A DNA stretch of 64,000 nt from an uncultured Gammaproteobacteria bacterium (GTDB lineage: Bacteria; Patescibacteriota; Microgenomatia; Levybacterales; UBA12049): the NCBI GenBank assembly GCA_965230895.1, contig OZ246394.1:1185887-1249886 (forward strand), read 5' to 3'. Numbering within the stretch: the stretch's first letter is position 1; every line of letters begins with the position of its first letter. Under the pieces are notes generated by a model. It was not told the origin of the DNA, did no database searches, and was given only the letters and a program-made list of their open reading frames with translations. A program made the translations under genes and the position numbers. Below are positions 9,609 to 44,043 of the stretch, one piece after another.

Positions 9609-11993
9609 CTATAGTCTCGCTCTGGTAGCAATTTCGGTTTCGATAACGTCGACTGATCTTCCATACTTCAATCGTGATAGTTCTCGCACCAACTCTGCTA
9701 CTCGAGGATTTTCCATAGCCTTCTCTTTCTCAACATCCTTGGTCGTATCAAGTGAGAATGGACGAACAGGCTCACCATTTACGATCGTTCGCATATAACA
9801 ATTATATTTATCTACATTAATTAAATCCTGTTCACTGAAGATCGGTTGGAACTCATGCTGAAGATAATTTGCATCAGTTACACCAATACGGAAAGATGCG
9901 ATTGTACCAACGTTACCAAAGATAGCATTTTTAATTTCTTCTTCCATCTGTCCGATAAACTGATTTGCCACAATAAGATTCAAACGATACTTTCGAGCCT
10001 CGGAAAGAATTTGCGCAAAATCTGGCGTCGCAAAGTTTTGGAACTCGTCGACATAGAGGAAGAAGTCTTTACGATCTTCCTTATTTACAATATCTTGTCG
10101 AGACATCGCAGCAACGAGAATTTTAGGAACTAAAATTAACCCAAGAAAGCTCGCATTTTCTTCACCAATCTTACCTTTAGAAAGATTGATAAGAAGAATC
10201 TTTTGTTCATCCATAACCTTTCGGAAATTGAACGCACTATCAGACTGCCCAATGATATTACGAATCATTTTGTTGGTAACGAAACGTCCAAACTTTGATG
10301 TAATATAATCCAAGACTTCAGATTTGTGGAAGTCAGACGTCTGAGCAATCTGGTCTGTCCAATAGCGTCTAATAATCGGATCTTCAACCTTTGGCAATAA
10401 CTCTTGAACGAAGTTCTGATCTGTTAAGACACGCATAACCTCGATAAAGGTACTTCCCTTTTCATACATAACAGTAAGCATCGCGTTACGAACAGCATGC
10501 TCAAATCGTGGACCGATGATACCAGTTTTGTTAGGATCAAAAAGCTTATACATCAAACCAATGATTGAATTTACAACAAAATGTTTTTGTTGTTCAGTTT
10601 CTGCTTCAAGCATGTTAAAGCCCATCGGACGATCGGTGTCTGAAGGATCAAAAAGAATAACATCTTCTGCACGCTTTGGCGGCATCATTTTCATGATATC
10701 TTCAACTAAATCTCCGTGCGGATCAATAACAGCACAACCTTCACCATTCATAATGTCCTGCATAATCATGCTTTTAAGAAATTCTGTTTTACCTGTACCT
10801 GTTTTTCCAATAATATATGTGTGTCTGCGCCTATCATCCCGTTCAACAAAAACATTTCGGGATATTCCCCGGAACGTACTGCGTCCCAGAAACAGACCCG
10901 TTGTTGGGAGATTTGATGGTGCAGCAGAACGTTTTGCATTAAGCCAATGAATACCTGGAGTTGAGATAGATTTGTTTGGGAAATGATAAATACTTGCAAG
11001 CTCTTCTGTCGTCAGAACAGAAGTCTGCCGAAACATTGGGAAATATCGATAGATGAAATCATTCATAAATAACCCTTTGTGGAATAATTCGCGCTTCTTG
11101 AACGCATTGCTTCCATTAAATTGGCCAAATGCCCCAAAGATATTTGAAAGATGAGCTTTTGCTGCAGCTTCTGTCTTTGCACACACAACAATACGAATGG
11201 TTGTATGAAAGCCTGCCTTACTTAATTTATTTTCGACAGCTTCCATTTCTTTCGCGTCTGTCTTATAACTAGCTTTTTCTGGATTAGATTCATTCTTTTT
11301 AAGACCTGCTAGATATGTTCTGCCTGCTTTCACCCATTTTGCATCTGCAGGTTTAATTAAAATTTGTATTGCTGCACCTTCGCCTTCTTGCATCTTGGCA
11401 AGAACTGATGTGATCGAAGACATAGGATCAACTGCAAGATCTTTGTATACCTTTATTGGCATGTAATCACTTGATTTTAAGTCTGTGTAAAGGAAAGCAA
11501 CTTTACCATCATCAGAAAAGATATTATATTCGGTACCAATTACGCCACCATCACGTTGTTTTGCAGCAGGATCATTAACAGGGACGATATCGGCTTCAGG
11601 ATATGCACCATTTATCTGTTTCTCGACGAAGTCACGATACTTTTGAGGAACATGGACGTAATATCGGATATCTCCGGGAAGACCAACAATCTCAAATGAA
11701 AGATGAGGTTGTGGTTTGAAGTTTTCAAATTTCCCACTTCCACGAATCGACGTAAGACTTGCAAACATTTGCTGAGCTGCATCAATCTTTGTATCATTAT
11801 CGCGTGGAACTGTCACTTGTAACAAGACTGAATTGAGAGAATCTGCTTCCCGAGTATGATGTCTTAAGTATAAAACGACTGCCCAATACAAAGCCCAAAA
11901 GAATCCAGCAAGAAACCCAAGCAATAAGACAATTCCGACAAGGGATGCCATAGCAACAAAGATATTATCGACTGTTAATACTGGTAATTCCAT
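9609..11993 (-). CDS. type IV secretion coupling-protein-like ATPase (VirD4/TraG/TraD family, membrane anchored)
   Basis: N-terminal TM helices; Walker A IIGKTGTGKT; Walker B-like FLYVDEFQNF; 794 aa. Fits the TraG/TraD-type P-loop NTPase architecture. Confidence 0.55.
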   Translation of the reverse strand: MELPVLTVDNIFVAMASLVGIVLLLGFLAGFFWALYWAVVLYLRHHTREADSLNSVLLQVTVPRDNDTKIDAAQQMFASLTSIRGSGKFENFKPQPHLSFEIVGLPGDIRYYVHVPQKYRDFVEKQINGAYPEADIVPVNDPAAKQRDGGVIGTEYNIFSDDGKVAFLYTDLKSSDYMPIKVYKDLAVDPMSSITSVLAKMQEGEGAAIQILIKPADAKWVKAGRTYLAGLKKNESNPEKASYKTDAKEMEAVENKLSKAGFHTTIRIVVCAKTEAAAKAHLSNIFGAFGQFNGSNAFKKRELFHKGLFMNDFIYRYFPMFRQTSVLTTEELASIYHFPNKSISTPGIHWLNAKRSAAPSNLPTTGLFLGRSTFRGISRNVFVERDDRRRHTYIIGKTGTGKTEFLKSMIMQDIMNGEGCAVIDPHGDLVEDIMKMMPPKRAEDVILFDPSDTDRPMGFNMLEAETEQQKHFVVNSIIGLMYKLFDPNKTGIIGPRFEHAVRNAMLTVMYEKGSTFIEVMRVLTDQNFVQELLPKVEDPIIRRYWTDQIAQTSDFHKSEVLDYITSKFGRFVTNKMIRNIIGQSDSAFNFRKVMDEQKILLINLSKGKIGEENASFLGLILVPKILVAAMSRQDIVNKEDRKDFFLYVDEFQNFATPDFAQILSEARKYRLNLIVANQFIGQMEEEIKNAIFGNVGTIASFRIGVTDANYLQHEFQPIFSEQDLINVDKYNCYMRTIVNGEPVRPFSLDTTKDVEKEKAMENPRVAELVRELSRLKYGRSVDVIETEIATRARL

Positions 11994-11997
11994 ATAT

Positions 11998-12618
11998 TTA
12001 ATTCCAAAATTTTATCAATTTATTTTCTTGTTTCTCTTCTTTTGTTTTCCCATGGGTTGGGTCTAGCTTTCTCCACACGTACATAACAAGCTCTGCTAAC
12101 CAATGTTTTGAATCGTTAAGTTTTGGATGTTGCTTCTCTTCAGCAACAGCCTGCTCAAAAGTCATTGGTAGTGATTTTACATTAAACACATTTTCATCAA
12201 TCGGTATACCTGGGCCGGAATGAGTCACTCCAGCCGCTTTTACTGCTTCGGACAGTTTCGGTTTATCAAGATCAGGTGTCTTTTCAATAATATTTTCGAC
12301 ACTTGATTCAACCTTCAGCTCCGGAGTTGTAGGTTGAACTTCAACTCGCTTGATTTCGGCAGTATTTTGAACAGGCTTAGTTGAAACTTCCTGTCTTGCT
12401 GGTTGGACATCTGCCTGATCTTCTGAAGATGCCACCGATACTGGACCTTGCTCCGGATGAACAGAAATTGCCTGTGGCGGAGTAGGAATTGATTGTATCA
12501 CAGGTTCAGATGGGGACATAGTTCCTGCCGAAATTGTTGGTGCAGGAGGTTGACCCCGGCCAGATATCATTGCCTGAGCACTTGGAGTACTCTGGACAGG
12601 AGATGTACTTGGATCCAT
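11998..12618 (-). CDS. Pro/Ser/Thr-rich low-complexity protein (hypothetical)
   Basis: 206 aa, immediately downstream of the coupling ATPase (4 nt gap); N-terminal PSTSPVQSTPSAQ low complexity. Confidence 0.35.
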   Translation of the reverse strand: MDPSTSPVQSTPSAQAMISGRGQPPAPTISAGTMSPSEPVIQSIPTPPQAISVHPEQGPVSVASSEDQADVQPARQEVSTKPVQNTAEIKRVEVQPTTPELKVESSVENIIEKTPDLDKPKLSEAVKAAGVTHSGPGIPIDENVFNVKSLPMTFEQAVAEEKQHPKLNDSKHWLAELVMYVWRKLDPTHGKTKEEKQENKLIKFWN

Positions 12619-12675: not shown

Positions 12676-12819
12676 TTACAAGACTATCTCACCTGGTTTC
12701 CACCCACACTCAGGACATGCAGTTAACTCCCCACACTGAATTTGAGAGACAGCATGATCATCAGCCTCCCATTTACATTGTCTACAAATAATTTTATAGC
12801 AAAGCTTACAATCTTCCAT
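12676..12819 (-). CDS. small zinc-ribbon protein (47 aa), not in ORF track
   Basis: Minus-strand ORF MEDCKLCYKIICRQCKWEADDHAVSQIQCGELTACPECGWKPGEIVL; CxxC...CxxC-type. Its ATG lies 1 nt after the stop of the 461-aa gene (TAATATG), suggesting coupling. Confidence 0.4.
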   Translation of the reverse strand: MEDCKLCYKIICRQCKWEADDHAVSQIQCGELTACPECGWKPGEIVL

Positions 12820-12820
12820 A

Positions 12821-14206
12821 TTAATCACAACTTATCCCAGATTCCTCAGCATATGCTTCTTTTGTCAAACCACACCCTGGGCAACTATTCCCGACTGGCC
12901 CATCAGCTTTAAATGAACATTTAGGGCAGGAGAACCACTCTTGTCCTTCAGGTGCTTTCTTTCCAAATTGGGAAACGCTATTCAACATTGCATTCACATT
13001 GTTTCCACCAATCTTTACACCTGCAGATTTACCACAACCAACTTCTCTCTCTTCAGCTTGCTCATGCCCATGACGTTGGGCAAGTGTAGCCATATATCTG
13101 TAAGCATCTTCATGCAGTTTTTTATTTTTTGATTCAAAGATAACATGCTCTTCTCCATCTATATGCATAGTAGCTCGTTCTGAGCTTAATAGCATGATAT
13201 TGTAAGCACGAGCTATTGCTTCAGGATCAAAAGCATCCTTCGTAATTTGATCAAGGAGATAGAGTTTGTATGGTAAATATAATTTGTCTAATTTTTGCCA
13301 TTCTTCTTCTTCCATTGCACCAACATCTTCGGCAAAATATTTCTGAAAAACAGTATCTATAGTTTGGCCTTCTTGCTCCGGAATTATCAACGGATTCTCC
13401 AGATACCATGCATCTAATGGTATTTGCTTTCCAGTCGTTTGTTCACGTTCAGCTTTCCGCTCAAAGAAATGAGGATCCAGTCGTTGTGCAATTGAGACAT
13501 AATCAGTTGTATCAACAGAAGATGCATATCGAACATAATTAATAATTCGATCTCCAGTTTCAGGATCTATTGCAGATTGATACCCGTCAATAAAATTATG
13601 CATATAAGGGCTATCAGCTACTTCGCTTGGTGCAGAAATAACCATAAGTGTAGTACCAACAGGTGTTTGAGGATCAGTTAAAGTATCTTGAATTCTTAAA
13701 AACCCGTCTATCTCAGCTTTTTCACGAACGAGATCATTTGAGCCATTTCGTTCACGGTAAACTCTTCCTCTTTCTAAAACATTTTCATATGGTTCAGGAA
13801 ATGCTTCATATCTGACTTTCTTTTCTGAGTCTATTGTAAGTGTTAATCGGCTTTCTTTGGTATTGTGCCGTTCACGAAGTGCAGTCGTAATATTGTTAAA
13901 TTCTTCATTGCGGAAGCTTTCTTTCTCCTCTTCAGAACGTGCTCTTTCAAATCCCCATCGCGCAAGTACAGGATTATAGTTGTCCAATGTTCCAGAACGG
14001 TCTTCAGGAAGATTTAATGCTTTATTCCATCTTTTCTGGAGGCTTTTAACTCCTTCCAATTCACTTTCAGCGTTTTGAGCAAGGACTGCATCTATTCTGG
14101 AAATCGTAGCATCAGCTTTTGCAGTGACCAAACGTGATGTATAAGCTTTCCGTTGAGGGAATCTAAATTCCTCGGCATATGAACGTCTCGACATTCTTTC
14201 TTGCAT
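12821..14206 (-). CDS. uncharacterised 461-aa protein with C-terminal double zinc-ribbon (CPKC...CPGC)
   Basis: Long ORF with no recognisable catalytic motif; C-terminal Cys pairs. Preceded by a cobalamin-riboswitch-like element and a terminator hairpin. Confidence 0.6.
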   Translation of the reverse strand: MQERMSRRSYAEEFRFPQRKAYTSRLVTAKADATISRIDAVLAQNAESELEGVKSLQKRWNKALNLPEDRSGTLDNYNPVLARWGFERARSEEEKESFRNEEFNNITTALRERHNTKESRLTLTIDSEKKVRYEAFPEPYENVLERGRVYRERNGSNDLVREKAEIDGFLRIQDTLTDPQTPVGTTLMVISAPSEVADSPYMHNFIDGYQSAIDPETGDRIINYVRYASSVDTTDYVSIAQRLDPHFFERKAEREQTTGKQIPLDAWYLENPLIIPEQEGQTIDTVFQKYFAEDVGAMEEEEWQKLDKLYLPYKLYLLDQITKDAFDPEAIARAYNIMLLSSERATMHIDGEEHVIFESKNKKLHEDAYRYMATLAQRHGHEQAEEREVGCGKSAGVKIGGNNVNAMLNSVSQFGKKAPEGQEWFSCPKCSFKADGPVGNSCPGCGLTKEAYAEESGISCD

Positions 14207-14236
14207 AAAAAAACTCCTCGCTTCGGAGGAGTTGCA
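14207..14236 (-). terminator. rho-independent terminator / riboswitch expression platform abutting ATG of orf461
   Basis: Minus strand reads CTCCTCCGAAGCGAGGAG followed by UUUUUUU, then the ATG directly. Confidence 0.6.
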
Positions 14237-14344
14237 TGAAAAACTGCTTCTGCTCCGGAAGACTTAAAGGGGCTCTGGCTCGATTTGAAAACAAACCTTA
14301 CAGTTGCGGCACAGCTTAGGATTTTCACCTAATTCACCCACCAA
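14237..14344 (-). promoter_or_regulatory. cobalamin-riboswitch-like element B (compact variant)
   Basis: Minus strand AGGUGAAAAUCCUAAGCUGUGCCGCAACUGUAA (core at 14298-14329) matches the GGUGnnAAnUCC...GCUG...CGCAnCnGUnA core of cobalamin riboswitches. It is followed by AGCCAGAGCCCC (B12-box-like) and then a terminator. Confidence 0.5.
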
Positions 14345-14886
14345 TTATTTCTTAATCCATTTAATCTCTTTTTGTTTTTCCTGATGATTAATATATCGCG
14401 CGAGTGTAAATAACAAGTCAGAAAGACGGTTGAGGTAAATAAGAATTGCCTGATCAACTTCTTCCTTTTCAGCCAAAGTAACGACTCTTCTCTCTGCACG
14501 TCGTGCAAATGTCCTTGCAACATGAATGAGTGAGCCTGATTTACTACCTCCAGGCAGAATAAAATTCTTTAGCTCAGGAAGTTTCTTTGTTAATGAATCA
14601 ATCAAAATTTCAAACTCCTGTGGACGCTTTTCCAAACCAATCACAGGAATCGGATATGGAGTTGCAAGTGTAGATCCGATTGCAAAAAGATCATGCTGAA
14701 TTGATTCAAGCTCTTTTGCAACCATTCTATACCTGCTCTTTGGAAGGAACGCCAATGTTTGCCCTAAAACACTATTTAATTCATCGACTGCGGCATAAGT
14801 CTCAACCCGTTCATGGGATTTCGCTACACGAGTTCCATCAAAAAGTGATGTTGTCCCTTTATCTCCTGTTCTTGTATAAATTGGCA
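14345..14886 (-). CDS. pduO: ATP:cob(I)alamin adenosyltransferase, PduO-type
   Basis: MPIYTRTGDKGTTSL N-terminal signature of PduO/MMAB family. The track ORF (to 14920) is over-extended through the upstream terminator; real ATG at 14886-14884. Confidence 0.85.
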
Positions 14887-14913
14887 TAAAAAAATCCTTC
14901 CGTGCAGAAGGAT
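14887..14913 (-). terminator. rho-independent terminator / expression platform abutting pduO ATG
   Basis: Minus strand AUCCUUCUGCACGGAAGGAU followed by UUUUUUU, then ATG. Confidence 0.6.
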
Positions 14914-15009
14914 TTCTCAAAAGCTCCTGCGCGGGATAAAATGTTTTCTGACTATCACAGTTGCGGCACAGCCATGGAATTTCACCATGATTTCCTCTTT
15001 AATTGTCTC
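14914..15009 (-). promoter_or_regulatory. cobalamin-riboswitch-like element A (compact variant)
   Basis: Minus strand AAAGAGGAAAUCAUGGUGAAAUUCCAUGGCUGUGCCGCAACUGUGA (core at 14955-14986) followed by CCCGCGCAGGAGC (B12-box-like). About 30 nt are near-identical to element B. Confidence 0.5.
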
Positions 15010-17466
15010 TTAGCATTCAGAATAACCACATGCGTAGCATTTCTTGCAACCTTCTTCGTAAGCGAAACTTCCTGATCCACATTCTGGGCAAATATCAAAG
15101 AGCGATGTTGAAGAACTTGATGCTTCCATTCCTGTTTGTGGAAGTGCAAGTTGGTTTACAACAACTTCTTCTTCGCCCGTTACAACTGCATCTGCTTTGA
15201 TAGGTGTTGTGACACCGTTAGCATGGCCGTTTCCATTCCCGTTTGCAAGAACTGCTTGTGCAGGTGTGTACGAAGCTTTATCTTCAACCTTGCCATTAAC
15301 TCTAAATTCACAATGTCGTGCAAGAACTTTAGAAATAGCATCAGGCAATGAACGAACTCTGTTCTCACCAAATCCACTCGATCGTGAACCTCCGATGCCA
15401 GCCAATTCTGACACAATCTCGCGGACCCGCTCCCGGGCAGGAACCGGACTGTGGATACGTAACACAAAGGATACCATCCGGCCGAGCGCGTCCGCGAGGG
15501 CCATTAAATCAGAACCGCTTTTCCCGTGATTGATGAAGACTTCAAAGAGGTCGCCCTTTTCGTCCTGATTGATGGTGACATATAATTTACCAGTTGGACT
15601 ATCAGCTTTGTATGTAACTCCAGTCAACATCATTGGTCTTGGGACACGTGGAGTTACTGGAACAACTGGTTCTTGTACTACTGGAACTTCGACTTTCGCT
15701 TCTTTCTTTTCTTCTCGCTGCAGAACTCCGGTTCGTGATCCATCTCGGAAATAGGTAACCCCTTTAAGACCATTATCATATGCTGACATATAGAGATTTT
15801 TAACATCTTCGACAGTATGATGACTTGGTGCATTTACAGTCTTTGATATTGATGAATCAATATATTCTTGCGCAACTGTTTGGATCTTTACATGATCTTC
15901 AGGTGATAAATCATTTGCTCCTACAAAATAATCTGGTCTTTCAGCATCAGGATGCGATTCCTTCCATTCGCCATACAATCCGTGATAAACCATTTGCTTA
16001 CCCAAGCGACCGTTATGTGAGTATTCAAATTCATAGACTGGTTCTACGCCACTTGAAACTGCTGCGATAAGACTTGTTGTGCCTGTTGGAGCAATTGTCA
16101 AAAGTACAGCATTTCGGATTCCCTGCTTGTAGATCTTCTCGCGAATTTCTTCTGGTAATGCTTGAATATGATATCCCTGGAGATATTTATCTCGATCATA
16201 CTTCAAGAATGAACCTTTTTCTTTTGCTATATCCGCTGACGCAATATATGCATTGTCTCGAAGTGCTGCAAAGATCTTCTTTGACACTTCTTCTGACTCT
16301 TTTGATCCGTAGCGGATCTTCATCTTGATGAAGGTATCTGCAATTCCCATGATTCCCAATCCAGTTCGGCGAATATCTTTTGCAACTTTTTCGTTTTCTT
16401 TAAAGAAGTAATAGGTATCGTCGATAACATTGTCGAGGAAACGCATCGCAACTTGGACGTCTTTACCAAACGCTTCATAATCAAACCAACCTGCTTGATC
16501 ATTCTTAAGATCAGCATCTTTTACATACGCGGCCAAATTCATCGCACCTAAGTTACAAACTGCCCAACCTCCAAGTGGTTGTTCTCCGCAAGGGTTTGTT
16601 GCGAGTAATTTTTCGAAATACCAAGTGTTTGATCTTTTGTTAGAACGATCTAAGAAGTGAAGACCTGGCTCAGCAGATTTCCATGCAGCTGTACAAATAA
16701 GATCCCAAAGTTCTTTTGCTTGTACTGTCTTGTAAACTTTAACTTTACCGCCATTTGCTTTCCAACTTCGGAGGTCCCCGTCCCAATCTTTATCATAATT
16801 TGGATCACTCAAATCTGGGTAAACAAGATCCCATGGCTTATCAGCTTTGACTGCCTCCATAAATTCATCTGAAACACAGACGGAAAGGTTTGCTCCATTG
16901 ATCTTTGTTAAATCTTCTTTAACAGTGATGAATTCTTCAATATCTGGATGCCAGTCCCAAAGCATAAGCATTGTAGCTCCACGTCGTGATCCGCCTTGTT
17001 GCACAATATCATGTGTTGCTACAGAGAAAAGGGTCGCCCAGTTGATAGGTCCTGATGAAGTTCCATTTACTTTCTTAACGCGTGATCCTCGTGGTCGAAG
17101 TGATGAAAGATTAAGGCCAACTCCGCCTGCTCGTGATTGAATTTCGATGAGTTGCCCGAGTGATTCGAGGATTCCATGTCGTGAATCTTTTGGACTTGGG
17201 ATAACGAAACAATTGAAGTAAGTAACTTGGTATCCAGTACCAGCTCCTGAAAGGATACGTCCACCTGGAACAAATTTGAAATCCTCAAGGACTCGATAGA
17301 ATTCACCTTCCCATTTTGCTTGCTTAGATTTTTTCTCTTGTGCAGCGATACCTTTTGCAACTCTTCTCCACATTTCTTCAGGTGTGTTTTCAAGAAGTTC
17401 TCCTTCTACACCTTTAAGAGCATATCTATCTAAAAATACTTTTTGTCTTACGCCTTCAAATTTCAT
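15010..17466 (-). CDS. nrdJ: adenosylcobalamin-dependent ribonucleotide reductase, class II
   Basis: 818 aa with RNR catalytic-core motifs (CGEQPLGGWAVCNLGAMNL) and a C-terminal Cys-rich zinc-ribbon tail; ATGA overlap with nrdR. Confidence 0.9.
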   Translation of the reverse strand: MKFEGVRQKVFLDRYALKGVEGELLENTPEEMWRRVAKGIAAQEKKSKQAKWEGEFYRVLEDFKFVPGGRILSGAGTGYQVTYFNCFVIPSPKDSRHGILESLGQLIEIQSRAGGVGLNLSSLRPRGSRVKKVNGTSSGPINWATLFSVATHDIVQQGGSRRGATMLMLWDWHPDIEEFITVKEDLTKINGANLSVCVSDEFMEAVKADKPWDLVYPDLSDPNYDKDWDGDLRSWKANGGKVKVYKTVQAKELWDLICTAAWKSAEPGLHFLDRSNKRSNTWYFEKLLATNPCGEQPLGGWAVCNLGAMNLAAYVKDADLKNDQAGWFDYEAFGKDVQVAMRFLDNVIDDTYYFFKENEKVAKDIRRTGLGIMGIADTFIKMKIRYGSKESEEVSKKIFAALRDNAYIASADIAKEKGSFLKYDRDKYLQGYHIQALPEEIREKIYKQGIRNAVLLTIAPTGTTSLIAAVSSGVEPVYEFEYSHNGRLGKQMVYHGLYGEWKESHPDAERPDYFVGANDLSPEDHVKIQTVAQEYIDSSISKTVNAPSHHTVEDVKNLYMSAYDNGLKGVTYFRDGSRTGVLQREEKKEAKVEVPVVQEPVVPVTPRVPRPMMLTGVTYKADSPTGKLYVTINQDEKGDLFEVFINHGKSGSDLMALADALGRMVSFVLRIHSPVPARERVREIVSELAGIGGSRSSGFGENRVRSLPDAISKVLARHCEFRVNGKVEDKASYTPAQAVLANGNGNGHANGVTTPIKADAVVTGEEEVVVNQLALPQTGMEASSSSTSLFDICPECGSGSFAYEEGCKKCYACGYSEC

Positions 17467-17942
17467 AATGTTGGTTTAGTTATTTTTCTTTTTGCCACAG
17501 ATAATTCTTTAACTTCTTTTTCAAAGTCTCCGGCTTCAACAAAGCGCTTAAATACACTCGCAAAACGAATATACGCAACTTTGTCTAACTGCTTTAATCG
17601 GGAGGCAACTATTTCGCCGATTAGTTCACTCTTAACCTCAAGTGAGCCCATTGTTCGTAGCTCACGGCTTACTTCATTGATGATTTTTTCAATCACACTC
17701 GCCGGAACTACGGTTTTCTCACATGATTTTAAAAGTCCAGTTTTTAATTTTTCCCGGTTAAATTGCTCTCTGCGTCCGTCCCGTTTGATTACAATTAGTT
17801 GTACATGCTCGACTCGTTCATAAGTCGTAAATCGCTTGCAACATGCCAGGCAAGCTCTTCTCCTTCGAATCGTGTCCATGTCCGAGCTATCACGTGTCTC
17901 TACAACCTCTGAATCCTTGCTTCCACAGTACGGGCAGTGCAT
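17463..17942 (-). CDS. nrdR: transcriptional repressor NrdR
   Basis: MHCPYCGSKDSEVVETRDS zinc-ribbon N-terminus plus ATP-cone; 159 aa. Confidence 0.9.
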   Translation of the reverse strand: MHCPYCGSKDSEVVETRDSSDMDTIRRRRACLACCKRFTTYERVEHVQLIVIKRDGRREQFNREKLKTGLLKSCEKTVVPASVIEKIINEVSRELRTMGSLEVKSELIGEIVASRLKQLDKVAYIRFASVFKRFVEAGDFEKEVKELSVAKRKITKPTL

Positions 17943-39013: not shown

Positions 39014-39427
39014 GGGGATGAATCGATTCGACGGAAAAAGTTCTTTTAAAACTGCAAGCCGACTTTGATTACTAGTCGTAAAACAGAGTCAAAAAATAAA
39101 TGCTAAATCTAGCATTGAAGCCCTAAGAGCTGAAAGGGATGCAATTCTTGCTGAACTTAACAACTCTTTTGGTGGCCAAAAGGCTTACGCTCTCGCAGCT
39201 TAAGCTTTAAAGCCTGTTCGCATATGTCTTCCCTTTCCGGGACAGTGCGGGCATAAAAACAGGAGAGGAAAACCTTAAGGAGTTGACGCGCCCTTATTGT
39301 ATACCGTCTATACTTTGTTATTCCGGCCAACAGGACACGGCAAAGTGAATTTTAAGAGTTGGCTACGCTTGTAGAGGTTTTACTAAATTTTTTTCACACT
39401 CCGGTTCACTGCCGGACATCTCCACAT
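39014..39427 (+). ncRNA. ssrA: tmRNA (ssrA)
   Basis: 5' GGGGAUGAAUCGAUUCGACGG. Acceptor stem pairs with 3' CAUCUCC, giving a G3:U70 Ala identity pair; T-arm CCGGUUCACUGCCGG. Internal tag ORF ends ...GGQKAYALAA then TAA. Located immediately downstream of smpB. Confidence 0.8.
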
Positions 39428-41673: not shown

Positions 41674-41760
41674 CGGAGGGAACAGGATTCGAACCTGCGG
41701 TAGGTGTAACCCCACGACTCCTTAGCAAGGAGTTACCATAAACCACTCGGACATCCCTCC
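41674..41760 (-). tRNA. tRNA-Ser (anticodon GCU), type II
   Basis: Manual fold: acceptor GGAGGGA/TCCCTCC, anticodon arm ACTCC-TTGCTAA-GGAGT, long variable arm, T-loop TTCGAAT; no encoded CCA. Confidence 0.8.
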
Positions 41761-41781
41761 TCGTAAGAATGAACTCTTTTG

Positions 41782-41868
41782 CGGAGGAGATGAGATTCGA
41801 ACTCATGGACCCTTTGACAGGTCGGAGGTTTAGTAAACCTCTGCACTCGGCCACTATGCGACTCCTCC
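41782..41868 (-). tRNA. type II Ser-like tRNA with anomalous anticodon loop UUACUAA (apparent anticodon ACU)
   Basis: Manual fold: acceptor GGAGGAG/CTCCTCC, discriminator G, D-arm almost identical to the Ser(UGA) gene, anticodon arm GAGGT-TTACTAA-ACCTC. Confidence 0.55.
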
Positions 41869-41887
41869 TCGTGCATTTACGATAATG

Positions 41888-41974
41888 CGGAGAGAGTGGG
41901 ATTCGAACCCACGGAAGGCTTGCACCCTCAGATGTTTTCAAGACATCCGCACTCGACCACTATGCGATCTCTCC
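41888..41974 (-). tRNA. tRNA-Ser (anticodon UGA), type II
   Basis: Acceptor GGAGAGA/TCTCTCC, anticodon arm GATGT-CTTGAAA-ACATC, long variable arm, T-loop TTCGAAT. Confidence 0.8.
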
Positions 41975-42056
41975 GTAAATTAACGCTTTATATAAACGTC
42001 GTCTGCCTATTATAGCATTTCTTGACTTCCTTTTTCTAATCAGTTAGAGTGAAAAT

Positions 42057-42617
42057 ATGCCTACTGCCCAAGAAAAAACCAAAGATCCTCAAAAAAATGA
42101 CGAGGAATTTTATGAGGAACATAATGTAAAAACGTTTATGTCCTGGCATGCTCCGGGAAGACCGTACAGAAAACGGTCCAGAGAATATTACATTAATAGT
42201 TTTCTCATAACTATGGCTCTGGAAATAATCCTTTTTCTCTTCTCACAATATCTTCTTATGCTCGTCGTTTTCTCTCTTGCGTTCCTCGCTTTTGCTTTGG
42301 CAATTGTTCCACCGCATAAATTTTATTACAGCATCAGCTCCGAAGGCATTCGAGTTGAAGATAATTATTTTATTTGGGAAGAACTTTACGACTTCTATTT
42401 TATGGAACGACAAGGCGTAGATGTACTCCACGTTCGAACAAAAGCATATTTCCCAGGAGAACTCACCATAGTTTTAGGTGATCTTCCTGTAGAACAGGTA
42501 CGAAAAGTCCTTCTTATGTTTCTTCCTTTCCGGGAATATGTCGAGCCGACATTTATGGAAAAAGCTGGCGATTGGTTAGAAAGAAATTTTCCACTGGAAC
42601 GATCTCCACAGCAATAA
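42057..42617 (+). CDS. membrane protein with two TM + bPH_2-like domain, paralog 3 (hypothetical)
   Basis: 186 aa; same architecture as 7936 and 35502 proteins; sits between two tRNA clusters. Confidence 0.4.
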   Translation: MPTAQEKTKDPQKNDEEFYEEHNVKTFMSWHAPGRPYRKRSREYYINSFLITMALEIILFLFSQYLLMLVVFSLAFLAFALAIVPPHKFYYSISSEGIRVEDNYFIWEELYDFYFMERQGVDVLHVRTKAYFPGELTIVLGDLPVEQVRKVLLMFLPFREYVEPTFMEKAGDWLERNFPLERSPQQ

Positions 42618-42670
42618 ATTCCATATCAGTTGCCTCGAAAACCTGTTTAAGGTAAAATACACTTTATTAT

Positions 42671-42744
42671 GCACCCGTAGCTCAGCTGGATAGAGCGCAA
42701 CATTGCGGATGTTGAGGTCGGAAGTTCGAATCTTCTCGGGTGTA
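42671..42744 (+). tRNA. tRNA-Arg-like (anticodon GCG)
   Basis: Sequence closely resembles bacterial tRNA-Arg (GCACCCGTAGCTCAGCTGGATAGAGC...); anticodon arm CAACA-TTGCGGA-TGTTG; G1:U72; discriminator A. Confidence 0.65.
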
Positions 42745-42755
42745 CTCAAATGGTT

Positions 42756-42845
42756 GGAGGGATCGCATAGTGGTCGAGTGCGGCGGTTTCGAAAACCGCT
42801 GTTCCGATTTTTTCGGAACCGAGGGTTCGAATCCCTCTCCCTCCG
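42756..42845 (+). tRNA. tRNA-Ser (anticodon CGA), type II
   Basis: Acceptor GGAGGGA/TCCCTCC, anticodon arm GCGGT-TTCGAAA-ACCGC, long variable arm. Confidence 0.8.
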
Positions 42846-42853
42846 CAACACGC

Positions 42854-43801
42854 TTATTTCTTCTTACTCGCTTTTCCAAATAACTGCAGTTCGAAGATAA
42901 AAGCGATCATAAGCGCAATTGCGGCAAGGACTATAACTTTAAAAAGACCTCTCGCAATTTTGTTCACATTCTTCTCTTCAAGCCGATGCATCAACGTACG
43001 AAGTCTTGCTCTCCACTCTTTCTTGTCGGTTTCACTCATATCTGATGTCTCGATATCCACTCGAGCCTTTTTTGCACGTTCTAGTGCGTCTTTTTGTGCA
43101 GGATCTTCTTCTTCATCTTCAGGAGCAACAGGAGTTTCAGGATCCTCTTCTTCAATAGATGGGACACCGTCTAAAAGCTCTGCTTTTTGTTCATCATTTA
43201 GTTTTGAATCCTGCAATAGTGACTCTCTATGCTCTTTTTTCAGTCCAGTCATTGCAGCTTTAACAGCTTGCATCTCTTCAGGAGTCAGCTGTTCTTTCCC
43301 TTTAATAAGCTTGTCGACAGCCAATCGTTGTTTTACAACTTCCTTATCTTCTTCGCTCAGATCAAGTTTATCGACGAGATCCTCAGGCTTAGAGGTAGGT
43401 TCTCCTTCTTCAGCTTCATCTGCAGAGAAATCGTCCTCAGGAGCAAGCACTTCACGAATCTTACCATCAGTCAGAGAGAGATCTTTCAATGATTGAGAAA
43501 AAGCCTCCCTGGCTTTTGCACTAACCGCTACATCTTGTTCATCTACCTCATCATTTTCATTCGAATCTGTAGCTTTAATAATTTCGTACACTTCGAGTTT
43601 TAATTCAGACTTATGCTCTTCCGAGATGTTTCCTTCTGCATCAATTGGAGTTTGTTTTACTTTCCACAAAAGCTCTTTTACATTTTCAGCAATATTTGCT
43701 GTAGCAAATGCATCTCGTCTTTCATGATCCGGGATCATGGCTTCATAGTGAGCTTGTTTTTCATGCTCGAGTTCTTGTTCGTGATTATCTCCTAATTCCA
43801 T
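42854..43801 (-). CDS. highly acidic coiled-coil protein with C-terminal TM anchor (hypothetical)
   Basis: 315 aa, E/D/K-rich; C-terminal LFKVIVLAAIALMIAFIF TM; SD-like AGGAAA upstream of the ATG. Confidence 0.5.
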   Translation of the reverse strand: MELGDNHEQELEHEKQAHYEAMIPDHERRDAFATANIAENVKELLWKVKQTPIDAEGNISEEHKSELKLEVYEIIKATDSNENDEVDEQDVAVSAKAREAFSQSLKDLSLTDGKIREVLAPEDDFSADEAEEGEPTSKPEDLVDKLDLSEEDKEVVKQRLAVDKLIKGKEQLTPEEMQAVKAAMTGLKKEHRESLLQDSKLNDEQKAELLDGVPSIEEEDPETPVAPEDEEEDPAQKDALERAKKARVDIETSDMSETDKKEWRARLRTLMHRLEEKNVNKIARGLFKVIVLAAIALMIAFIFELQLFGKASKKK

Positions 43802-43956
43802 ACATTTCCTTTCTTTATCCTCTATTATTTAGCCTGAATTGTCAAGTAGAACCTGACCTTGGCTTCATACGAAAGAATACGTTATAATTACAAAACGATT
43901 ATAGGAAAACTCTTCATTTTATACTTGATATTTTCCTTATAAAAAAATTACGATTT

Positions 43957-44043
43957 GGAGGAGTCGGATAGCGGTCTATTCCACACGCTTGGAAAGCGTG
44001 CGAGCGCAAGCTCACGCGGGTTCGAATCCCGCCTCCTCCGCCA
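43957..44043 (+). tRNA. tRNA-Ser (anticodon GGA), type II, CCA encoded
   Basis: Acceptor GGAGGAG/CTCCTCC, anticodon arm CACGC-TTGGAAA-GCGTG, long variable arm, 3' GCCA. Confidence 0.85.

Follow-up and report, generated by a model that had tools for sequence, protein, structure and literature searches.

In other co-encoded systems, the adenosyltransferase is joined by a corrinoid reductase or a processing partner, such as PduS, CblC/CblD or CobR. In Salmonella, the PduO-type adenosyltransferase is accompanied by the cobalamin reductase PduS, a flavoprotein that carries two [4Fe-4S] clusters and is encoded in a microcompartment operon; CblC (MMACHC) and CblD (MMADHC) process cobalamin, with thiolato-cobalamin being handed over to MMAB; and BtuM is an integral-membrane, cysteine (Cys)-ligating and decyanating B12 transporter, for which the binding of Cys to cobalt has been shown. 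Episymbiotic bacteria of the candidate phyla radiation (CPR), a group of ultra-small bacteria, cannot make B12. Riboswitches are reliable guides to the gaps that are left in vitamin pathways. Here, a 64,000-nucleotide (nt) stretch of contig OZ246394.1 ('the window', that is, the whole stretch of DNA analysed) was found to harbour a gene, denoted X, that encodes a 461-residue protein and lies between a cobalamin-class riboswitch and a 47-residue micro-open reading frame (micro-ORF), downstream of pduO and of the ribonucleotide reductase gene nrdJ. Comparison with relatives showed that X is a member of the cobalamin regulon of these bacteria and a constant neighbour of PduO. Tentatively, X (together with the micro-ORF product where present) is proposed to be a new cytoplasmic partner of PduO that is induced by B12 scarcity and prepares scavenged corrinoid for adenosylation via a Cys- and metal-based redox module; this is the reading that we favour, while granting that it may well be wrong.

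By analogy, X would parallel PduS-PduO or CblC/CblD-MMAB in function, without homology. Like PduS, it is a Cys/metal protein that is encoded with a PduO-type adenosyltransferase and is proposed to deliver reduced corrinoid; unlike PduS, it has no PduS Pfam domains, its predicted fold is a different one and it is controlled by a riboswitch rather than placed in a microcompartment operon. With CblC/CblD it would share a place in the cytoplasm after uptake and ahead of adenosylation, a role other than transport and, as proposed, Cys thiolate chemistry on cobalt, yet X has neither a Pfam match to MMACHC nor a nitroreductase-like fold among its Foldseek matches, and it possesses a Cys4 ribbon and a partner micro-protein. 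BtuM is likewise a B12-regulon protein with Cys on cobalt (proposed for X), but it is integral to the membrane, whereas X has no hydrophobic segment. A further likeness is to the cysteine-rich domain of NrdJ, which is 150-220 residues long, is present in ~70% of NrdJ sequences and ends in six conserved Cys that coordinate zinc and relay electrons, with the physiological reductant reported as unknown (Loderer et al. 2017, PMC5704485). X, located two genes downstream of such an NrdJ, also bears six conserved Cys at its extreme C-terminus, but it has no TSCPD match, differs in Cys spacing and sequence, and is a separate protein under an inferred repression by B12. What is new at this locus is the protein family of X, while the riboswitch-controlled B12 salvage operon as such is already well known.

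The features of the locus in the window are as follows (AdoCbl, adenosylcobalamin):

17942..17463, minus strand: nrdR (Pfam Zn_ribbon_NrdR plus ATP-cone; phmmer survey)
17466..15010, minus strand: nrdJ, class II (AdoCbl-dependent) ribonucleotide reductase with a C-terminal TSCPD/cysteine-rich domain (Pfam families on an identical gene)
15009..14933, minus strand: AdoCbl-II riboswitch aptamer A, between the nrdJ stop and pduO (RF01689)
14887..14345, minus strand: pduO, PduO-type ATP:cob(I)alamin adenosyltransferase (Pfam Cob_adeno_trans, 2.7e-58; TIGR00636, 9.9e-56)
14376..14252, minus strand: predicted cobalamin riboswitch aptamer B, overlapping the last pduO codons, 5′ of X (RF00174, RF01689, own model, covariation)
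14205..14233, minus strand: predicted expression platform of element B (terminator scan and sequence)
14206..12821, minus strand: gene X, 461 residues (open reading frame; homologues; AlphaFold model)
12824..13045, minus strand: C-terminal Cys module of X, residues 388-461 (six conserved Cys in alignments)
12819..12676, minus strand: micro-ORF, 47 residues (direct reading; homologues; substitution rates)

In the conserved array nrdR comes first, followed by nrdJ, pduO and X, and in the window nrdR and nrdJ overlap by 4 nt. The AdoCbl-dependent reductase and the PduO adenosyltransferase that the original prediction had ascribed to the organism were both recovered (Pfam, TIGR00636), and on contigs with identical sequence pduO was called as a 180-residue gene. 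Within the locus, which is the part of the window scanned for such enzymes, nrdJ encodes the sole B12-dependent enzyme identified; a six-Cys array follows the TSCPD domain at the C-terminus of its product (15010-15100, minus strand).

Genomic context was sampled on the contigs of ten homologues and at 31 loci from a species-representative genome collection, which were surveyed with phmmer and hidden Markov models. For the genome scan, a first alignment of the family (A1) was too divergent, while a second one (A2), anchored on the conserved C-terminal ribbon, worked; the genome loci are therefore biased toward members with the canonical ribbon. At 30 of the 31 informative non-redundant loci, pduO was located immediately 5′ of X on the same strand, in the order nrdR-nrdJ-[DUF4430-DUF6580]-pduO-X. 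Where no riboswitch intervenes, the start of X lies from -19 to +52 nt relative to the pduO stop, and X is often translationally coupled to pduO, with a pduO/X junction that is overlapping or 1-6 nt long in many loci. Homologues of X down to ~20-25% identity recur directly downstream of pduO and nrdJ. Two exceptions to the order were found: in L040, purF- and purN-like genes separate pduO and X and a riboswitch is still located 5′ of X, and in L017 there is no pduO within 3.7 kb upstream of X. The genes 3′ of X vary by lineage, being VirD4-like in some and NUDIX/SmpB or others elsewhere, so that the constant partner of X is pduO. The recurrence of homologues by nrdJ and pduO behind cobalamin riboswitches, which the original prediction had named as one test of a B12 role, was found at about 30 independent loci.

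Three of the sampled loci (L006, L007 and L013) carry X in a single riboswitch-led operon with DUF4430, DUF6580 and pduO. In these and in L033, a DUF4430 protein and a DUF6580 membrane protein are encoded between the riboswitch and pduO (for example, L007 4374-5457). Transcobalamins carry DUF4430 as their C-terminal domain (PMC4350170), and the two proteins are a candidate two-component B12 uptake system. PDB sequence searches with DUF4430 and DUF6580 gave no match, no paper mentioning DUF6580 was found in the literature, and neither gene is present in the window.

Both riboswitch elements of the window were scored against Rfam. Element A reached 46.9 bits for RF01689 (gathering score 36.5). 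Element B scored 31.9 bits for RF00174, at the border of the gathering score of 31.5 and just above it, and 34.6 bits for RF01689, below the 36.5 required. A covariance model of our own, built from seven Rfam-detected aptamers, gave 60.3 bits on element B and detected 41 elements in 563 kb, all of them on the strand of X and in one of two gaps, nrdJ to the pduO operon or pduO to X. In an alignment of 38 related elements, which is fitted to the model in a way that favours it, 96% of the cells were paired and 14 of the 19 pairs had double (compensatory) changes; the covariation score was 0.595, while shuffled controls gave 0.141 and slid controls at most 0.127. Judged by its Rfam score and this covariation, element B is predicted to be a cobalamin riboswitch (clan CL00101), and the riboswitch-like leader noted earlier in front of X was in this way substantiated.

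Downstream of element B, the expression platform consists of a hairpin, AACTCCTCC-GAAGC-GAGGAGTT, followed by a run of seven T at 14205-14211 that abuts the ATG of X, with a Shine-Dalgarno-like GAGGAG in the 3′ arm. The platform is conserved before X in other loci as CTTCCGAGCAGAAG ... CTCCTCGGAAGCGAGGAG-T7-ATG, and CTTCCGAG is complementary to CTCGGAAG of the terminator. These features are those expected of a terminator/antiterminator design with a hairpin that would sequester the Shine-Dalgarno sequence. The same design is found before pduO, where a terminator-like hairpin and a T-run stand ahead of the ATG. Aptamer A starts at the base right after the nrdJ stop codon, hence nrdJ falls outside B12 control and pduO lies behind the riboswitch.

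Across relatives, every X locus examined has a cobalamin-class riboswitch before X or before its operon, the match in L017 being below the Rfam threshold: there our own model gave no match, and an RF01482 (AdoCbl)-like element directly 5′ of X scored 33.1 bits against a gathering score of 50 (E 2.3e-4). In 12 loci (L014-L016, L020, L025, L027, L029, L034, L035, L038, L040 and L042) the only element is the one immediately 5′ of X; in several (the window, L003, L018, L019, L033 and L039) both elements are present; and in the remaining ones X is within an operon led by an upstream element. That the position of the riboswitch shifts among loci (before pduO, before X or both) suggests repeated duplication or relocation of the element.

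X is a real and widely conserved gene. A word-indexed protein search with X returned 50 relatives, and an exhaustive profile search returned at least 672 cluster representatives at 50% identity, 394 of them with E below 1e-30; in all but one of the 150 matches listed, the match was a single stretch over most of the profile. Between the window and L003, X shows a ratio of nonsynonymous to synonymous substitution rates (dN/dS) of ~0.14 (dN 0.26; dS ~1.8, saturated). Family members range from 347 to 480 residues. E112, R161, E162, E165, S191, F205, R226, P272, C391, C427 and C445 are invariant in the alignment, and R113, P192, C430, C442 and C460 are also invariant or nearly so. The protein is acidic (isoelectric point 5.1), and with a maximum 19-residue hydropathy of 0.68 it has no hydrophobic segment and is predicted to be soluble and cytoplasmic. 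A transporter or secreted-binder role was rejected, as neither a hydrophobic segment nor a signal peptide is present; GCGKS was likewise rejected as a P-loop, since its Lys and Ser are not conserved.

By sequence and by fold searches, X belongs to no known family. Searches of X against Pfam and NCBIfam gave nothing above noise, those of 28 family members against Pfam gave no consistent match, and the only match in a PDB sequence search was a marginal one of the C-terminal ribbon, in agreement with the original description of a protein that has no recognisable domain apart from that ribbon. Pfam zinc-ribbon families (for example, Zn_ribbon_3 and Zn_Ribbon_TF) matched X at E 0.016-0.2 at best, far below their curated cut-offs, and no paper describing the family was found in the literature. 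Two AlphaFold models were produced, one of the window X (from 28 sequences; predicted local distance difference test (pLDDT) 78.7, with the core above 90) and one of a 353-residue relative (from 148 sequences; pLDDT 86.6, predicted template modelling score 0.76). The former shows a disordered N-terminus (~1-44), a confident alpha/beta and helical core (~75-400) and the Cys-rich C-terminal module. Common to both models are an alpha/beta domain with a five-stranded antiparallel sheet, then a helical domain and, after a GCG motif, a low-confidence Gly/Ser linker, the ribbon and a short terminal helix. Foldseek comparison of both models with the PDB found nothing significant (best E 0.073 and 0.054; template modelling score at most 0.2), and the comparison with BFVD likewise gave no significant match for X. 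Only weak matches recurred, to PAS/GAF/LOV/Cache, TagF and longin-type sandwiches, and no nitroreductase-like fold was among them; the concern that a structure search against these two collections might turn up a known, unrelated function was not borne out.

The C-terminal module consists, in order, of the GCG motif (C391), a Gly/Ser-rich low-confidence linker, an NSVxxFG motif, the CPKC...CPGC ribbon (C427, C430, C442 and C445) and the penultimate Cys460; the protein ends in ...CPKCSFKADGPVGNSCPGCGLTKEAYAEESGISCD. Six Cys in the last ~70 residues are invariant in 36 sequences and invariant or nearly so in 148. Across the family, the GCG motif, the NSVxxFG motif and a Cys among the three C-terminal residues are general, the last being found in 147 of 192 X-family sequences. 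In the ribbon, two CxxC knuckles, the second of them CPxCG, are flanked by aromatics (WFSCPKC...CPGCG by direct reading), an arrangement that is invariant in the canonical subfamily. In a PDB profile search, residues ~420-455 matched the rubredoxin-like domain of rubrerythrin marginally (E 0.027; domain i-E 0.048). The rubrerythrin/nigerythrin pattern aromatic-x-CPxC-x-Y...CPxCG-x-x-KE-x-[FY] aligns with this region and a weak NCBIfam nigerythrin match is present, but there is no match to Pfam rubredoxin in X. Word-index protein searches with the 53-residue C-terminal module and with the micro-ORF gave no match.

The TAA of X is separated by one base from the ATG of the micro-ORF (TAATATG), and direct reading confirmed the 461-residue frame and the 47-residue CxxC frame behind it. 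The product, MEDCKLCYKIICRQCKWEADDHAVSQIQCGELTACPECGWKPGEIVL, has six conserved Cys (CxxC-x4-CxxC...CPxC) and two conserved Trp, and 17 distinct homologues share the pattern C-x2-C-[FY]-x-I-x-C-x2-C-x-W ... L-T-A-C-P-x-C-G-W-x-P. The distribution of the micro-ORF and of the C-terminal module was taken from the fetched loci: a homologue is located 3′ of X in 18 tabulated loci plus the window, often overlapping the X stop, and it is retained there even where further downstream genes differ. Between the window and L003 its dN/dS is ~0.07 (dN 0.078; dS 1.17), a stronger constraint than that on X. The micro-ORF is a real but accessory gene. Its earlier description as unannotated does not hold for Logan contigs with identical sequence, on which it had already been called by a gene caller.

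In Microgenomates-type CPR bacteria, according to the favoured reading, X would be switched on when B12 is scarce and would belong to the AdoCbl supply line, where its substrate would be imported corrinoid, either ahead of adenosylation or in the course of it. The alpha/beta core would most likely bind the corrinoid, and the flexible Cys-rich tail (C391, the Cys4 metal knuckle and the terminal C460) would reduce cobalt or remove the upper ligand, whereby PduO would receive cob(II)/cob(I)alamin; the six-Cys micro-protein may be a redox or metal partner of X. The candidate chemistries are Co(III)/Co(II) reduction, thiolate removal of the upper ligand and hand-over to PduO. A role in making AdoCbl is favoured because of the translational coupling to pduO, because there is precedent for adenosyltransferases being accompanied by a protein that reduces or processes the corrinoid, and because of the Cys-rich, apparently mobile tail with its rubrerythrin-like Cys4 knuckle. 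The earlier suggestion of a cobalamin acquisition/processing or B12-sparing function is supported as far as membership in the B12 regulon is concerned, while the choice of role and the activity are inferred.

Several points weigh against this proposal. The link of X to corrinoids is drawn from genomic context and sequence; among 28 family members there is no Pfam-A match to CblC/MMACHC, to a PduS-type reductase or to the B12-binding domain (PF02310), and the DxHxxG B12-binding motif is absent from X. The ribbon could simply bind structural zinc, its rubrerythrin match being marginal, and the type of ribbon differs among X subfamilies. About half of the loci have no micro-ORF. All identified X loci are from Microgenomates-type CPR bacteria (Levy-, Curtiss- and Roizmanbacteria and 'Patescibacteria group', with some labels evidently generic), and in a single CPR lineage part of the synteny may reflect common descent rather than selection. 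The switch is presumed to be of the usual OFF type, with X repressed when the cofactor is plentiful, on the grounds that X is co-transcribed with the putative uptake genes and that the platform appears to be a terminator that sequesters the Shine-Dalgarno sequence; kissing-loop complementarity (aptamer loops against the CTTC-CGAGCA-GAAG platform hairpin) and simple minimum-free-energy folding of the leader did not settle the polarity. Moreover, control by B12 scarcity is just as compatible with a B12-sparing role.

If X is made when the cofactor is scarce, two classes of role follow, namely helping to make AdoCbl or coping without it. For the latter, riboswitch-controlled metE, nrdAB and nrdDG in other bacteria are the analogue: X would be made when AdoCbl is lacking and would make up for the inactivity of NrdJ, for instance through another route that supplies or spares deoxyribonucleotides. 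Such sparing would suit the 12 loci in which X stands alone behind the riboswitch, with nrdJ and pduO upstream of the element, and the fact that nrdJ alone, among the genes of the conserved array, was identified as encoding a B12-dependent enzyme; the Cys array, which has a Cys at the extreme C-terminus, also recalls reductase tails (PMC5704485). It is nevertheless considered unlikely, as X is far too small for a ribonucleotide reductase, its models have no reductase-like barrel, no nucleotide-binding motif or kinase/transferase family match was found in X (Pfam, NCBIfam), and the overlapping or 1-6-nt junctions in many loci argue for a pathway in common with PduO. A chaperone, buffer or store, in which X (with the micro-protein) would perform no chemistry but capture scarce B12 in the cytoplasm and pass it on to PduO or NrdJ, has the same context and regulation in its favour as the corrinoid-preparing role, and the sole recurrent weak fold likenesses are to ligand-binding domains of the PAS/GAF/LOV/Cache type. 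These fold matches are not significant, however (best E 0.05-0.07), and a catalytic or redox site would account for the invariant charged residues and the six invariant Cys better than a passive pocket would, which makes this account improbable as well.

The weak matches to PAS/GAF/CodY/VqmA-type folds could also be read as those of a sensor, which together with a zinc ribbon, a feature common in nucleic-acid-binding proteins, would adjust replication, transcription or division in B12 starvation; one homologue carries the name RPC12/RpoP-like from its source. Given that no DNA-binding domain was detected in X (Pfam, NCBIfam), that the protein is acidic and that tight translational coupling to an enzyme gene would be unusual for a regulator, a regulatory or stress factor is quite unlikely. 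Still less probable is that X serves the cysteine-rich C-terminal domain of NrdJ as its dedicated partner in redox or assembly. The NrdJ of the window does have a TSCPD/six-Cys tail, X and the micro-ORF each have six conserved Cys and are always in the nrdJ neighbourhood, and Loderer et al. 2017 (PMC5704485) found no reduction of such an enzyme by thioredoxins or glutaredoxin. Yet X, lying behind a cobalamin riboswitch and co-transcribed with putative uptake genes, would be repressed exactly when NrdJ works, and synthesis under cofactor scarcity argues against an obligatory partner of a working NrdJ; in addition, the identified X loci are from one CPR lineage, as compared with a domain found in ~70% of NrdJ, and X when detached from the array keeps the riboswitch, not nrdJ. 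A more far-reaching reading is given little credence: X and the six-Cys micro-protein would form a self-contained thiol/metal redox machine, induced by B12 starvation, that sustains deoxyribonucleotide supply while the sole ribonucleotide reductase is without its cofactor. The machine would be the physiological electron donor of class II reductases with the cysteine-rich domain or of PduO-type adenosyltransferases, or else would bypass B12 altogether, and in each case it would represent a new enzyme class with a new fold.

Two questions become testable: the source of reduced corrinoid for PduO-type adenosyltransferases in organisms without known reductases, and how episymbiotic CPR bacteria supply their only ribonucleotide reductase. 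The riboswitch here points to a large family without annotation, Pfam model or recognisable fold, in reduced genomes that keep only essentials, and the gene pair and residues E112, R161, E162, E165, S191, C391, C427, C430, C442, C445 and C460 provide an entry point for biochemistry.

Several further observations were made at the surveyed loci. In two divergent ones, a gene of the PNPOx_N type (flavin mononucleotide-binding split-barrel) is located just 3′ of X (L045 6615-7091 and L043 6316-6777), a possible flavin-dependent electron source. Much longer nrdJ genes are present in relatives (the contig of P0011, L037 2183-5809 and L014 1-3237); one carries intein and LAGLIDADG domains, and the others probably also contain inteins. 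In L033 (1942-8199), from a metagenome-assembled genome (MAG) labelled Actinomycetota, each of nrdR, nrdJ, DUF6580 and pduO is broken up into several ORFs, while both riboswitches are intact; the splits are probably frameshift errors of long-read assembly rather than marks of pseudogenes. Many MAGs with the CPR-type locus (L012, L018, L020, L022-L024 and others) are labelled 'uncultured Gammaproteobacteria', 'Lysobacterales', 'Methylomirabilota' or 'Actinomycetota', labels that look wrong since all of the loci resemble Microgenomates in their gene content.

Downstream of the B12 genes in the window (9609-12618, minus strand), a 206-residue Pro/Gln-rich protein and a 794-residue VirD4/TrwB-like ATPase with a DUF8128 N-terminus are encoded. 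The pair adjoins X in many, not all, CPR loci and looks like a separate conserved module; it was rejected as part of the X module, being absent beside X in L010, L011, L022-L024, L028, L030, L037 and L044. Elsewhere in the window, a tmRNA gene at 39014-39427 (plus strand; 92 bits) has a ~66-nt insertion, unaligned to the Rfam model, in the stretch near the segment that codes for the tag; six tRNA genes lie clustered behind it at 41674-44040.

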